Assembly (NCBI GenBank): GCA_038889235.1 | Contig: JAWAHN010000003.1 | Coordinates: 233,703-265,702, forward strand | DNA from: Candidatus Jordarchaeales archaeon | GTDB taxonomy: Archaea; Asgardarchaeota; Jordiarchaeia; Jordiarchaeales; Freyrarchaeaceae | DNA length: 32,000 nucleotides | Direction of reading: 5' to 3' | In this document: one piece after another, positions 1 to 4,402 of the stretch | Position numbering within the stretch: position 1 is the stretch's first letter | Layout: every line of letters begins with the position of its first letter | Translations under genes and position numbers: made by a program | Notes under the pieces: model-generated | The model's input: the letters and a program-made list of their open reading frames with translations, nothing else | What the model was told of the DNA's origin: nothing | Databases searched by the model: none

Positions 1-944
1 CCTATTTCGACCTTGGGGTTACTCAGTATTCTGATGAGGATAGAGTAGTACTTGTCGCCGAGGCGGGAGAGCTGGCTTATGAGCTTGAGCAGCAACCCAC
101 CTTCGAGCGAAGCGACCTTGGAAGCTGAAAGCACCTCTTTAAGCCTGTGCATGACCAAGTTGAAGGTCTCATTGCTCATGTCTCTTATCTCCGCTATTAT
201 CCAAGCAAGGTTGTTTCCACCTATCTCGGTCACGTGGTTTGACGAGAAAACTTCTAGAAGTCTCTTGTACCTGTCCTCCCCCAACAGTTTTAGCCCCCTT
301 ATTAGCGAGGGAATGCTGTTCCCCTCGACTTTGTTGACGCTGTCTAGCAATAGCAGTTCGCTCAACCTCTTCTCCAGGACTTTGATCTCGCTGTCATCGA
401 GCTGCGCGACTTCCGACACTAGGAGGGGGATACAATAACTGCTGATCTGGGTGAACTTACTCCTCGAGAGGAGGAACTTCAGGAAATCTTTGTGTTGCTC
501 TGAGAGCTTGCCGCACTCCCTGAAAGTGCTAGGGAGGTCGCGTCCATCTATTGAGCTAACGGCAAGCTCGCCCAGCATCTGTCTTAGGAAGAACTCCACT
601 GAGACGCTTTTCTCGCCGAGCCTCTCCACCTCGTAGAGCAACCTTATAATGTTTCGTTCACCAACGCTGCCTACCTTGGGGTTCTCAATTATTCTAGCGA
701 TAATGTTTCGTTGAACCCTGGTGAGGTTCTTAAGCTTGTGGGCGAACTCCACAAGCACCTCTAACGAGGTGAACTTGACTTTCCCGCCTTCAATTATTCT
801 CCTTACATCTTCCACTATTTCCGACCCAAAGGACTGAAGTAAAATATCCAGAGCTCTATCTATGTCAAATCCGGAAGAAGTGTTCTCAAACTCTCTTCTC
901 AAGCTCCTAAACCTCTCAAACGTGGCATAAACCTCCTTCAACAC
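1..944 (-). CDS. Alpha-solenoid tandem-repeat protein, 3' end beyond the window; possible CbbO/NorD-like partner of the adjacent ATPase
   Basis: Manual translation: stop-free frame from GTG 944 (TTG 941), directly after an in-frame TAA at 947-945, to position 1 (about 314 codons: VLKEVYATFERFRSL...ILSNPKVEI). Contains six complete helical repeats of 35-39 aa. Absent from the ORF track, presumably because its stop lies outside the window. Start codon uncertain. Confidence 0.85.
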   Translation of the reverse strand, partial: MLKEVYATFERFRSLRREFENTSSGFDIDRALDILLQSFGSEIVEDVRRIIEGGKVKFTSLEVLVEFAHKLKNLTRVQRNIIARIIENPKVGSVGERNIIRLLYEVERLGEKSVSVEFFLRQMLGELAVSSIDGRDLPSTFRECGKLSEQHKDFLKFLLSRSKFTQISSYCIPLLVSEVAQLDDSEIKVLEKRLSELLLLDSVNKVEGNSIPSLIRGLKLLGEDRYKRLLEVFSSNHVTEIGGNNLAWIIAEIRDMSNETFNLVMHRLKEVLSASKVASLEGGLLLKLISQLSRLGDKYYSILIRILSNPKVEI

Positions 945-1148
945 TTAAATGTAGTAGAGGGCGTTGCGAGGAGAAGTAGAACACAGTCGCCGGTAGAGTA
1001 TTAAAGCCAAGAGAATGGTGGTTCAGGGGTAAGGCTTGTTTCCGGGCGGCCTTCGATGGGCGCCCCACAGTTCCACGTCCCATAAACCAGAGGAGGGTGC
1101 TCGGTATAAATACATTTTGGTAAGAATGCCTCATGTGCCCGCGGCGAC

Positions 1149-2321
1149 TTATATCCCTTCAAGGGTTTCTAGGGGGATCTTCCTAAGGCCGACGTAGTAC
1201 GCCACAGCTTCAACTATCTTTCTAACCTCGGTCGCCTGTGAGGGTTTAAGGTTCGCGCTGAGGTTGTCGGCAACGCGCTCAACGCTCTCGTTCAAGGCGT
1301 CTCTTTCACCGAACAACTTGTAGGTTTCAAGGTACGCGTCGATCGCCTTGTGGAGTATTCTCTGCGTTGGACACCTTATCTGCCCAGGGGCTAGCTTCTG
1401 GTGTAGGAACGAGGAAATGAGGTCTGCAAGCTCCACGTTTTGAAGCTGTATGGTTCCATACTCGTATACTTGTCTGAGCTTGTCGACGAGGTCGGCTATC
1501 TTCCTCATGTTGGAGATGTGCTCCTCGAGCCCAGCTTCCTCCATGAGCTTGTCACTGTACTCCTTAGGCACATTCTGAACAGCGACGTACGAAAAGCTCG
1601 GCTCTTCGTCAACCTTCTTCTCCTTGAAGTCGCGCCAGCACCCTGAGTCCCACACCATTGGGATAAACTCTTTCTCACCCAGCCATATTCCACGGTACTG
1701 CACTGGGCCGTTCAGTTTCGACGCCTCCATCGCCATCTCCTCAAACTTCTCCTGTTTCACCTTCCTCGTCTCGACGAGGGAGATCAAAAGTTGAACTTCA
1801 ACCTCGTGGTACTTGAACTTGAGAGTGTTAAACCTGTCGAGCGCTGGCTCAGGCATCTGCGAGCCTACTCTCCCGATCTCCGTCGGGTTATAAGATACGA
1901 TTATCATGTAGTCAGTTCCACCGATTTCCTCGCCGTTTGGAAGCAAGCCACGCCTCCTAGTGTCAAGCCAGGGGAAAAGCGTTGGCCATATTTCAGCCCT
2001 TAAGGCTATAGCCTCGTCGATGTAGAATATTCCCCCCTCTTCTATGACCTTCATATGCCTACTTTTCTCGAAAACCGTTTCCGAGCCGCCATCCTTACTT
2101 CTCAGCTCTCTTCTTCCGAGAATGTCGGCCTCCAGCGTGTCACCACTAGCCATGAGTATGGACAGGGGCTTGTTAAGTTTCTCTGCTAAGAACTCCACAA
2201 ACCTGGTCTTACCAGTCCCGGGAAGCCCTTCAAGCGCAAGGTGACCCCTAGCGTAGTAAGTTTGGAGCGCACGTATAACCTCGTCCATCTTGCCATCTAA
2301 GCTTGAAACGTAAAATACCAT
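1149..2321 (-). CDS. MoxR-family AAA+ ATPase, CbbQ/NirQ/NorQ-like
   Basis: Walker A GLPGTGKT followed by RFVE, Walker B FYIDE, D-x-RR, SYNP (sensor I), LDRF (Arg finger) and PTQRIL (sensor II-like). GGTGG RBS before the ATG. Confidence 0.85.
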   Translation of the reverse strand: MVFYVSSLDGKMDEVIRALQTYYARGHLALEGLPGTGKTRFVEFLAEKLNKPLSILMASGDTLEADILGRRELRSKDGGSETVFEKSRHMKVIEEGGIFYIDEAIALRAEIWPTLFPWLDTRRRGLLPNGEEIGGTDYMIIVSYNPTEIGRVGSQMPEPALDRFNTLKFKYHEVEVQLLISLVETRKVKQEKFEEMAMEASKLNGPVQYRGIWLGEKEFIPMVWDSGCWRDFKEKKVDEEPSFSYVAVQNVPKEYSDKLMEEAGLEEHISNMRKIADLVDKLRQVYEYGTIQLQNVELADLISSFLHQKLAPGQIRCPTQRILHKAIDAYLETYKLFGERDALNESVERVADNLSANLKPSQATEVRKIVEAVAYYVGLRKIPLETLEGI

Positions 2322-2499: not shown

Positions 2500-3057
2500 T
2501 TACGGTGCCGGGAGGGAGCGCTTCAGCACGAACTCACAGTACTCGTCGCCCTTAGCTTTGCACTTAACTTCCTCCGATGTGAAGAGCGGCTTCCCGTCTT
2601 TTTCAGCGAAGTAGTTTAGAATCCCCTCAGCTACGTACCCCGAGCTGCACGTGGCTGATGGTTGCACCCCCCTCATCTTAAAATATGCCCCCGTTTCCTC
2701 TCCGTAAAGCGAGCTGTAAACCCTGAAAACCACTTGTGATTCGCCGAACTCGATAAGCTCGTTTCTCCCAAACCCCATGAGGTACTCTAAGGATAAGTAG
2801 TACTCTAGAACGCCCTTTGCTCCGAGGGCCTCCATCTTCTCAGCAAGTTTCCTACCATAGTTGACTAGCGCACGCCTCCTCACTGGCTCCAGCATCTTGC
2901 TATAGCGCTCTACGAGGGCGCCCATGAGAGAGACGGAGAAGAGCACCCCGGGGGCAAACACAAACCTACGCCCTTTAAACGACAAAGCCCCACTTTCGTC
3001 TATTTCGATGCCGTCAATGAAGCTTTTTATATCCTTAGGCAGCTCCTCAGCCATCAC
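2500..3057 (-). CDS. Stand-alone V4R-domain protein (XylR_N/V4R-like)
   Basis: GFG turn, then C...EEVKCKAKGDEYCEF (C/E/C/C Zn-site pattern of V4R). GTGA start/stop overlap with the upstream paralogue. Confidence 0.85.
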   Translation of the reverse strand: MMAEELPKDIKSFIDGIEIDESGALSFKGRRFVFAPGVLFSVSLMGALVERYSKMLEPVRRRALVNYGRKLAEKMEALGAKGVLEYYLSLEYLMGFGRNELIEFGESQVVFRVYSSLYGEETGAYFKMRGVQPSATCSSGYVAEGILNYFAEKDGKPLFTSEEVKCKAKGDEYCEFVLKRSLPAP

Positions 3058-3653
3058 TCCTCACCCTCCACCACGAACTCACAGTAATCGTCTCCTCTGG
3101 CAAGACACTTAGGCTCTTTAAAGGTAAGTTTAATGGACCCGCGGCCCTGCTTCTCTAGGACAGCCTTCACAACCCCAACCCAGTTCGCACCCCAGCCGCA
3201 CTCGTAGAAGGGGAAGCGTGCAGTGAGATCCTTCACGTTCCTCCTAAGCCACTCCGCAATAAGTTGATTGTACATTCGAACAACCACCTCCGGCTTACTA
3301 AAATCCTTTCTCACCACCTCTGAAACCCCCCACCCTCTCACAGCGCTGTACTCCGCATACGCCTCCAAAACTTTCTCCGGAGGAATGCCTTGAGACATAA
3401 GTTGGTTTGCCACAGTATAGCCCGTAATTTCCAGGGAAGGGTACATTAGCATTTTCATCGAGGAGCCTAAGACGTCCATTATTCCCTCGAAAGACAACAT
3501 GAAAAGTTCCTGATCCATGAATACGTAGCGAACGCCACCATACTTTATTCGCCCCTCACTGTCAAACTCTATCTTGCTCTTAAGAGATCTCAGAGCATTC
3601 CTCAGGGATTCTAAGGAAACCTTTTCACCAACATTTCTCTCCAAACAAACCAC
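3054..3653 (-). CDS. Stand-alone V4R-domain protein (XylR_N/V4R-like)
   Basis: GWG turn, then YEC...KEPKCLARGDDYCEF V4R motif. The start may be a few codons downstream. Confidence 0.85.
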   Translation of the reverse strand: MVCLERNVGEKVSLESLRNALRSLKSKIEFDSEGRIKYGGVRYVFMDQELFMLSFEGIMDVLGSSMKMLMYPSLEITGYTVANQLMSQGIPPEKVLEAYAEYSAVRGWGVSEVVRKDFSKPEVVVRMYNQLIAEWLRRNVKDLTARFPFYECGWGANWVGVVKAVLEKQGRGSIKLTFKEPKCLARGDDYCEFVVEGEE

Positions 3654-3778
3654 CCATTAAAATATTCTCACATTTTATTTAAAATACAAGACAGTTTACT
3701 TAATATATTTTGTGATCTTCTTTATATCTTGCAGGCTTGGTTACGCCATTCTCAAAGTGGTTGCTCCGCGGTGGGAGC

Positions 3779-4402
3779 ATGTTTCTCGATAGGAGGCATG
3801 CTGGCAGGCTGCTGGGGGAGGCGGTTGCCGAAAAGGTTGGAAGAGTAGACTACGTCCTAGCGATACCTAATGGTGGAGTTGCGGTGGGCTACGAGGTTGC
3901 CAAGAGGCTGGGTGCGAGGCTAGGAGTGGTTGTCGTCAGGAAGATTCCGATCCCGTGGAACACTGAGGCTGGTTTCGGGGCCGTCGACCCCGACGGGGAG
4001 GTCGTGTTGAACGCGCCCTTACTTAGCAGGCTGGGGTTGAGGAGAGAGGAAGTTGAGGAGCTTGTGAAGTGGGTTAAAAAAGGAATCGATGAGAGGGTGC
4101 GCAAGTACGGTGGCATTCCGAACGTTGAAGGGAAGAGTGTTGTGGTCGTGGACGATGGGATAGCGTCGGGGGTCACAATGATAGCTGCATGTCTCTATGT
4201 TAGGAGGAGGAGAGCTGGCAGCGTTGTGGCGGCTGCGCCTGTAGCTCCACTACACTCGTTTGAGCTTGTTAAGAGCTACGCGGACCAGATAGTGGTTCTC
4301 GAGGTCGTCGACACCCTAACCTTCGCTGTGGCGGACTACTATGAGAACTGGTATGATGTTCCAGACGAGGAGGTTGTCCAGTACTTAGAGGGGGGGTGTT
4401 AG
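3779..4402 (+). CDS. Type I phosphoribosyltransferase-like protein (COG1926 type)
   Basis: N-terminal MFLDRRHAGRLL, AIPNGG, RKIPIPWNTEAGFGAV and PRPP loop VVVVDDGIASGVT. ATG 3779 preferred over TTG 3737. Confidence 0.85.
   Translation: MFLDRRHAGRLLGEAVAEKVGRVDYVLAIPNGGVAVGYEVAKRLGARLGVVVVRKIPIPWNTEAGFGAVDPDGEVVLNAPLLSRLGLRREEVEELVKWVKKGIDERVRKYGGIPNVEGKSVVVVDDGIASGVTMIAACLYVRRRRAGSVVAAAPVAPLHSFELVKSYADQIVVLEVVDTLTFAVADYYENWYDVPDEEVVQYLEGGC

Follow-up and report, generated by a model that had tools for sequence, protein, structure and literature searches.

MoxR-type ATPases and their VWA adaptors (NorQD, CbbQO, CobST, and RavA-ViaA) insert metals or remodel specific enzymes. How the adaptors choose their clients is poorly understood, and a locus of a Candidatus Jordarchaeales archaeon raises this question in a new form: which machine, and which client, would be served by a NorD-type core that is extended by a solenoid of no known family? 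The locus lies in a 32,000-nucleotide stretch of DNA (assembly GCA_038889235.1, contig JAWAHN010000003.1, positions 233,703 to 265,702 of the forward strand; G000:C3:233703-265702 in our numbering). This stretch is referred to below as the window, and its positions are used unless marked otherwise. In a preliminary description, an array of repeats downstream of a CbbQ-type ATPase gene had been noted and interpreted as part of an adaptor or scaffold for this ATPase. The analysis presented here suggested, with a probability of about 0.7, that the two genes encode a two-gene MoxR-type remodelling machine, in which a CbbQ/NorQ-like AAA+ ATPase would act together with a VWA adaptor of the NorD/CbbO class whose N-terminus has acquired an alpha-solenoid specific to the lineage. 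This estimate covers the classification of the pair and, by homology with characterized systems, its general mechanism.

Adaptor gene and its NorD-type core

The repeats were noted in an open reading frame (ORF) that occupies positions 3..944 of the minus strand in the ORF list and is open at the left edge of the window. As anticipated in the preliminary description, the gene continues past this edge. Retrieval of the flank from the contig yielded a complete adaptor gene of 1157 codons on the minus strand (G000:C3:231173-234646; L002:9471..12944), which extends 2529 bases past the left window edge; its 5' part, coding for residues 1-314, lies at positions 1..944 of the minus strand according to the ORF list, the translation (P0001), and the genome placement. 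The solenoid of the encoded protein (residues ~46-488), which consists of 11-12 two-helix units of 35-39 residues, is followed by a helical connector (residues 489-584), a NorD-type N-terminal domain (residues ~585-745), an acidic linker (residues ~746-880) with a net charge of -15, of which -10 falls on residues 820-860, a finger (residues ~930-976), and a VWA domain (residues 976-1157).

The Pfam search returned one significant domain in the adaptor, VWA (PF00092), which spans residues 981-1132 and passes the curated cut-off (E 4e-7), and no significant family was found in NCBIfam. [quoted passage not shown] A VWA domain had been predicted to lie beyond the window edge, and it is indeed present at the C-terminus with its DxSxS motif. 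A profile of residues 500-1157 matched the solved structures of NorD with E-values of 3.1e-19 (9qhd_G) and 3.9e-16 (9qh6_G). The alignments begin upstream of the VWA fold, over residues 403-448 of Paracoccus denitrificans NorD, that is, over the pore-penetrating finger (finger and MIDAS are used here as defined in PMC13036017).

An exhaustive comparison of the adaptor profile with 1.84 billion representative sequences gave 3072 matches. Among the 150 best of these, the adaptor's own cluster and a 179-residue fragment aside, only two blocks of the profile were matched, and none of the matches fell in the repeat region. The first block (positions ~560-720) corresponds to the NorD-type N-terminal domain with the motifs DGKHIYLP ... 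HAVSH ... LEDARCEDH, and the second (positions ~840-1125) to the finger and the VWA domain. Profile positions ~600-630, which belong to this motif series, were also matched by about 120 of the 148 nearest core-matching representatives. Those relatives of the adaptor that carry a name in their source are called NorD. The adaptor belongs to the NorD/CbbO class (COG4548-like) and carries a new, lineage-specific N-terminal solenoid; the role of a solenoid-bearing adaptor, proposed when only the 5' part of the gene was at hand, agrees with the homology of the C-terminal half to NorD and with the linkage to the ATPase described below.

Two further features of the protein were observed. In the NorD-type N-terminal domain (residues ~655-700), the pattern H-x3-H ... 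E-D-x-R-x-E-D-H (LHAVSHIRYGSF ... ALEDARCEDH) is invariant, and the outgroup protein P0014 has HEIAH, an HExxH-like motif, at the corresponding position. To judge from these residues, the pattern may be either the relic of a metal site or a working one. At the N-terminus, residues 1 to ~25 (..TFERFRSL[RK]R..; positions 850-944, minus strand) are conserved with synonymous changes, such as GAGAGG vs GAACGC, and the stretch is therefore coding. The relatives of the adaptor are annotated with starts located later than this conserved peptide of ~25 residues; at L003:7960-8020, no ATG, GTG, or TTG codon occurs between the preceding in-frame TAA and the peptide.

Partner ATPase and gene linkage

The gene located directly upstream of the adaptor (positions 1149..2321, minus strand) encodes a 390-residue ATPase, P0002, with an AAA_5 core (Pfam, E 3.5e-20). 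Among solved structures, it is closest to CbbQ (5c3c, E 2.4e-16) and NorQ (9qh4, E 2.9e-15), and the midasin modules rank lower (E 1.8e-9). The aligned motifs include the Walker A sequence GLPGTGKT, the Walker B sequence IDEA, an H2-insert-like segment GRRELRSKDGGSET, SYNP, and ALDRF. The assignment of the neighbouring gene to the CbbQ type in the preliminary description is in line with these results. The identity of the pair as CobS/CobT was also considered and rejected, the CobS model giving an E-value of 0.1.

The AAA core is followed by a C-terminal extension of ~185 residues (residues ~206-390; positions 1149-1700, minus strand), for which no relative of solved structure was found, CbbQ and NorQ included. 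Full-length orthologues of the ATPase that keep this extension were found in Jordarchaeales only and are 84-89% identical, and the next proteins in the database are 27-31% identical and share the AAA core alone. The extension is thus lineage-specific in the same way as the solenoid, and therefore the two might be in contact with each other.

Close relatives of the adaptor form six clusters at 72-100% identity, which originate from metagenome-assembled genomes named Candidatus Jordarchaeum sp. and from a mislabelled "Thermoproteota archaeon." An AAA_5 gene precedes the adaptor gene in the window and at the loci L003, L005, and L006. The nearest outgroup protein, P0014 (L012), is 36% identical to the adaptor in the VWA domain and 22% identical across the connector and the N-terminal domain, and its gene is likewise adjacent to an AAA_5 gene; all close relatives and the outgroup are therefore ATPase-linked, as would be expected from the association first noted in the window. 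Orthologues of the adaptor and of the ATPase were found in the same three of the 11 species genomes of the class (G000, G002, and G004), so that both genes or neither are present in all 11. The N-terminus of P0014, together with a 322-residue ORF overlapping its start, was also considered as a split solenoid and was discarded, since no repeat match was obtained.

Repeat units of the solenoid

Within the window, the array occupies positions 3..809 of the minus strand and comprises six complete units (residues 84-304), preceded by a probable cap unit (residues 46-83) and followed by the start of the seventh. The six units of the preliminary description were recovered at residues 84, 122, 157, 196, 231, and 270 with the lengths given there (38/35/39/35/39/35). 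The repeats are statistically real. A hidden Markov model built from these six units scored 34.4 bits on residues 305-560, which had not been used for its construction, and none of 500 shuffles (mean -2.4, maximum 8.6) reached the real score. In a leave-one-out comparison, five of the six units scored above each of 300 shuffles, the exception being unit 157-195; the mean ungapped BLOSUM62 score between units was +24, compared with -29 +/- 13 for shuffled units; and a 74-residue piece of the array found five further copies by phmmer. BLASTP of the whole protein against itself gave no off-diagonal match because the units are too divergent for this comparison, and profile methods are therefore needed to see them.

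Iteration of the profile on five relatives placed 11 unit starts at residues 84, 122, 157, 196, 231, 270, 305, 340, 379, 414, and 453, with the end of the array at ~488; residues 46-83 are probably a degenerate cap unit. The spacing of the units is 38, 35, 39, 35, 39, 35, 35, 39, 35, and 39 residues; the phase slips once, at unit 305. In the five relatives, of which the most distant is 63% identical in the first 540 residues, the array shows no insertions or deletions, and the alternation of long and short units is therefore preserved. The extra residues of the long units correspond to the end of the second helix. Thus, the alternation described earlier holds with a single slip; the double unit of ~74 residues proposed along with it is supported mainly by length, because long and short units were inseparable by sequence (permutation p = 0.20), although the similarity of units was higher at lag 2 (31.4) than at lag 1 (22.5).

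Unit positions 8, 11, 16, and 26, for which a hydrophobic character had been stated, are hydrophobic in 11, 10, 11, and 10 of the 11 units, respectively. They form part of a hydrophobic core that includes positions 2, 3, 8, 11, 16, 19, 20, 23, 26, and 34. The conserved polar features are an N-P-K-type loop at positions 5-7 and an S/G-D/E turn at positions 27-28. Comparison with the family-level relative revealed that identity rises along the protein, amounting to 49-60% in units 1-6, 77-85% in units 7-10, 84% in the NorD-type N-terminal domain, and 90% in the VWA domain. This gradient suggests that the inner units may be packed against a conserved partner, either the adaptor core or the ATPase, and that the outer units may present a freer surface, possibly facing the client.

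The AlphaFold2 (AF2) prediction for the array, based on an alignment of five sequences, consisted of a chain of helix hairpins with short bridged loops, and the best of five models had a predicted local distance difference test score (pLDDT) of 85.1 and a predicted template modelling score of 0.74. A second, independent predictor gave the solenoid a pLDDT of 81. The repeat region was found in three of the 400 genomes of the phylum (G000, G002, and G004) and, among the 1.84 billion representatives, in one 50%-identity cluster. Six weak matches of the phylum scan, all from one genus (E ~5e-5), were traced to an adenylate-forming, CoA-ligase-like ORF that matches one unit, and they were rejected as spurious by sequence.

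Proposed mechanism and client

By homology with NorQD and CbbQO, the ATPase is expected to form a hexamer. The VWA domain of the adaptor would dock in the ring via the finger and the C-terminus, with the pre-VWA finger (~930-976) inserted into the pore and the C-terminus on the post-sensor-1 loop, and the MIDAS site would grip an acidic residue of the client. The acidic linker (~746-880), which joins the NorD-type N-terminal domain (~585-745) to the VWA domain, would be stretched by ATP-driven rotation, and this stretching would remodel the client, for example, by insertion of a metal or cofactor or by release of an inhibitor. Docking, MIDAS capture, and rotation with stretching of the linker follow the model proposed for NorQD (PMC13036017). 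The solenoid might add to such a machine an extra platform for holding or scaffolding the client, that is, a second leverage point, in which the inner units 7-10 are constrained and the outer units 1-6 evolve fast. We consider the odds that the solenoid has this specific role as a client platform to be about even.

A number of observations weigh against the assignment of the pair to this type of machine. In the ATPase, the CbbQ_C domain (PF08406) was not detected by Pfam, and the ~185-residue extension is present. The N-terminal domain of the adaptor showed no significant match to solved NorD itself (i-E 2.7e3) and was significant against relatives of the family only. High confidence for the solenoid was reached in one of the five AF2 models, and the AF2 model of residues 500-1157, also based on five sequences, was poor (pLDDT 46.6) and was excluded from the fold searches. 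With this query, the pair was not found in a congeneric genome of 92% completeness. In addition, the clients of the characterized systems do not fit this locus. NorB/COX1 (PF00115) was not found in the archaeon's own 95%-complete genome, where controls gave matches, and homologues of the Rubisco large subunit occur in every one of the 11 class genomes, with the pair or without it, and are unlinked to the pair; in the archaeon's own genome, the homologue is located on another contig. Since NorB/COX1 was not found and Rubisco is neither linked to nor co-distributed with the pair, neither of them is a suitable candidate; on the first of these grounds, the client must differ from that of NorQD.

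Distribution of the pair and alternative explanations

The absence of the pair from the genome of the same genus indicates an accessory system rather than a core one. With the same query, a closed genome from the sister family likewise lacked the pair. Such a patchy distribution, with three of 11 class genomes positive, would also be compatible with an accessory MoxR-vWA-type module for conflict or defence, in which the fast-evolving outer repeats sense an invader. In favour of this explanation, genes of a HEPN-MNT toxin-antitoxin system occur nearby (in G004, upstream of the ATPase), and the outer repeat units are those that evolve fastest. In the MoxR-vWA ternary conflict systems, the vWA domain is N-terminal, the effectors are C-terminal, and the third component is VMAP, iSTAND, FtsH, or a beta-propeller (PMC7159879). 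The adaptor considered here has the reverse arrangement, with the VWA domain at the C-terminus of a NorD core, and no effector domain; moreover, the three genomes share no conserved third gene, and PADLOC returned no match for the adaptor and only P-loop-level matches for the ATPase. A defence function therefore appears improbable.

Another possibility is that the pair belongs to a larger, ligand-responsive module. Two tandem genes for V4R-domain proteins of 185 and 199 residues (positions 2500..3653, minus strand; Pfam V4R) are located upstream of the ATPase gene, and all four genes are adjacent and on the same strand both here and in a 79%-identical relative. The V4R proteins would then be clients or regulators of the solenoid. 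However, orthologous or paralogous V4R pairs are found class-wide, including genomes without the ATPase and adaptor; in G004, the V4R pair is located on a separate contig, and a HEPN-MNT pair takes its place upstream of the ATPase. The genes are also separated by spacers of 178 and ~200 nucleotides, one of which contains a promoter-like element. A complex prediction for the solenoid (residues 30-500) with the two V4R proteins had a score of 0.00 and was made without controls, so that it counts neither way on binding. The V4R pair is not coupled to the ATPase-adaptor pair, and a four-gene module is quite improbable. Apart from this question, it was observed that the two V4R genes belong to a large paralogous family, with 10 matches in this genome and the C-terminal motif GD[DE]YCEF.

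The fold of the array raises a third possibility, a nucleic-acid-binding solenoid of the TALE, mTERF, or PUF kind that tethers the ATPase-VWA machine to DNA or RNA. These families, like the array, consist of tandem helical units of ~33-39 residues that form a solenoid (TALE units have 33-35 residues and PUF units 36), and they are its top natural structural neighbours. In a Foldseek search of the PDB, designed repeat proteins ranked first, followed by TAL effectors (dHax3) and MTERF1, with a probability of at most 0.97 and TM-scores of 0.16-0.25. VIA-align found no chain with Z >= 8 among 48,161, the best natural ones being PUF domains (Z 6.1-6.2) and MTERF4 (Z 6.0); according to the tool's own caution, helical repeats reach Z ~13 by chance, and Z ~6 is common for them. 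The superposition is thus poor and no better than with designed proteins, which score equally well or higher, and there is no sequence similarity between the array and these families, none of which was matched in Pfam. The array is neutral (net charge -2, isoelectric point 6.4) and lacks a conserved basic stripe, which does not favour the binding of nucleic acids. Its conserved positions are those of the hydrophobic core and of helix capping, and it differs from TALE, mTERF, and PUF proteins in its two-helix hairpins with a conserved NPK-type loop and in the absence of a basic surface. On balance, tethering to DNA or RNA is very improbable.

Other known repeat families did not provide a better match. 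No Pfam repeat family was found for the array at E <= 1, searches of the AlphaFold database clusters and ESM Atlas returned structural matches to unnamed proteins with TM-scores of at most 0.39, and the ESM Atlas feature search with residues 30-500 gave no usable match. In the preliminary description, the repeat was not recognised as TPR, ankyrin, HEAT, or PPR, in agreement with these data, and the structure prediction and Foldseek comparison envisaged there resulted in helix hairpins with no convincing neighbour (TM <= 0.25).

Finally, a split midasin-like machine for ribosome biogenesis, which would be relevant to the origin of eukaryotic Rea1/Mdn1, is only a remote prospect: the host is an Asgard archaeon, the ATPase also matches the midasin AAA modules (E 1.8e-9), and the helical region, the D/E-rich linker (net -10, 820-860), and the MIDAS with a pore finger parallel the midasin tail (PMC13036017), but the ATPase is much more similar to CbbQ and NorQ, the VWA-half profile hits NorD and does not reach any midasin chain at E <= 1, and the gene was found in only three of the 400 phylum genomes and is lacking in close relatives. 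The patchy distribution of the pair argues against an ancestral Asgard trait, and the locus by itself has no bearing on eukaryote origins.

Intergenic spacer and neighbouring genes

The spacer between the ATPase and adaptor genes (positions 945-1148) contains two conserved elements on the minus strand. In an alignment of four loci, an element resembling a transcription factor B recognition element and TATA box, CCAAAA..TATTTATA, was identified at positions 1103..1124 (TATA-like box at 1105-1112). Its similarity to the archaeal promoter consensus points to a separate promoter for the adaptor gene. Approximately 22 nucleotides downstream of the TATA-like box, a 25-nucleotide block, TGGGACGTGGAAnTGTGGG[GC]GCCC (positions 1058..1082), has 21 of its 25 columns identical and is kept even in the most distant close relative, whose protein is 72% identical overall and 63% identical over the N-terminal 540 residues. 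In each of the three distinct sequences, an upstream ORF of 55-61 codons begins at this block (M/L-G-R-G-x-V-G-A/R-P) and ends at or near the adaptor start; the remainder of the ORF is poorly conserved. This region could contain a promoter followed by a leader, an operator, or an upstream ORF. A genome-wide pattern search found the block in a single copy, and, as a possible regulon operator, it therefore provides no lead to the client. No Rfam family matched the window at gathering thresholds.

Several other genes were observed in the surroundings of the pair. A gene for reverse gyrase (helicase and topoisomerase IA, 1095 residues) is located ~7 kb to the left of the window on the plus strand (L002:2020-5307), which is consistent with a hyperthermophilic host. 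Small genes with a phosphoribosyltransferase domain occur near the pair, on the opposite strand, in three genomes (L002:6751-7281; window positions 3737-4402; L003:12363-12908; L005:5463-5906). Their recurrence may reflect conserved gene order and not a functional link.

Arrays in other long NorD-like adaptors

Although the Jordarchaeales solenoid is confined to a single small lineage of Asgard archaea, other NorD-like adaptors were found to carry arrays that have the same periodicity but look unrelated to it. At least 300 residues precede the first core match in 67 of the 148 nearest core-matching NorD-like representatives, and in 21 of these 67, internal repetition was detected, the offsets being 74-78 and 111-119 residues. 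In P0023, P0024, and P0026, units of 37 and 41 residues alternate; for P0023 and P0026, the gene immediately upstream encodes a canonical CbbQ (AAA_5 + CbbQ_C, 275-276 residues). These and other proteins of the group (P0098 and P0151 among them) resemble the Jordarchaeales adaptor in that they combine an array with a NorD core and a VWA domain and are encoded downstream of an AAA_5 gene. The arrays themselves are also alike, with units of ~37-41 residues, a double unit of 74-78 residues, and alternating lengths that differ by four residues. On the other hand, the proteins belong to other lineages, their ATPases are short and canonical (AAA_5 + CbbQ_C), and the repeats have no detectable sequence homology: comparison of the Jordarchaeales units and double units with the P0023-type repeats by hhalign gave probabilities of 0.08-3.9%, at which homology is not demonstrable.

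As far as the sequences go, the arrays may represent either one fast-diverging repeat class or convergence. A bolder proposal is that the arrays, with their hairpins of ~35-41 residues and four-residue alternation, form one ancient, fast-diverging, and undescribed class that serves MoxR-VWA machines as an exchangeable module for client recognition; in that case, the array of the Jordarchaeales would be one of its highly divergent members, and its client would be new to the chaperone class. We regard this proposal as tentative and, at present, rather unlikely. If the arrays do bind clients, they would provide a handle on new clients of this chaperone class as well as a clean test case for the two-leverage-point "twist and stretch" model of NorQD.

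A side observation concerns the genes located just downstream of repeat-bearing NorD-like adaptors. At two loci, in the family-level Jordarchaeales relative (L003:12363-16116) and in the unrelated metagenomic contig with P0023 (L048:9302-12237), these include genes for 3-hydroxyacyl-CoA dehydrogenase, enoyl-CoA hydratase, and a protein of the metallo-beta-lactamase fold. The dehydrogenase, hydratase, and metallo-beta-lactamase-fold genes are absent from the corresponding position in the genome of the window, and their recurrence may be a coincidence.

Comparison with CbbQO and NorQD

Among the characterized systems, the ATPase has its best solved match in CbbQ, the Rubisco activase whose VWA adaptor is CbbO (PMC4660213; CbbQ structures 5c3c and 6l1q). 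The pair shares with CbbQO the two-gene logic of a MoxR ATPase and a VWA protein, and a homologue of the Rubisco large subunit is encoded in the genome. The differences are that this homologue is unlinked and occurs in 11 class genomes, compared with three for the pair, and that no CbbQ_C domain was detected in the ATPase. To our knowledge, no repeat array has been described for CbbO.

The closest similarity of the adaptor is to NorD, the VWA partner of NorQ, which is needed for the insertion of FeB into cNOR (PDB 9qhd and 9qh6; PMC13036017; PMC9976466). Both proteins have a C-terminal VWA domain with a DxSxS-T-D MIDAS and the same order of N-terminal domain, flexible linker, and VWA domain, their finger regions align (E 3e-19), and both genes adjoin that of a CbbQ/NorQ-type AAA_5 ATPase. 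In contrast, NorD has ~640 residues, compared with 1157 here, and contains no counterpart of the N-terminal solenoid of ~490 residues. The Jordarchaeales system is further distinguished from NorQD by its strongly acidic linker and by a partner ATPase of 390 residues with a unique C-terminal extension.

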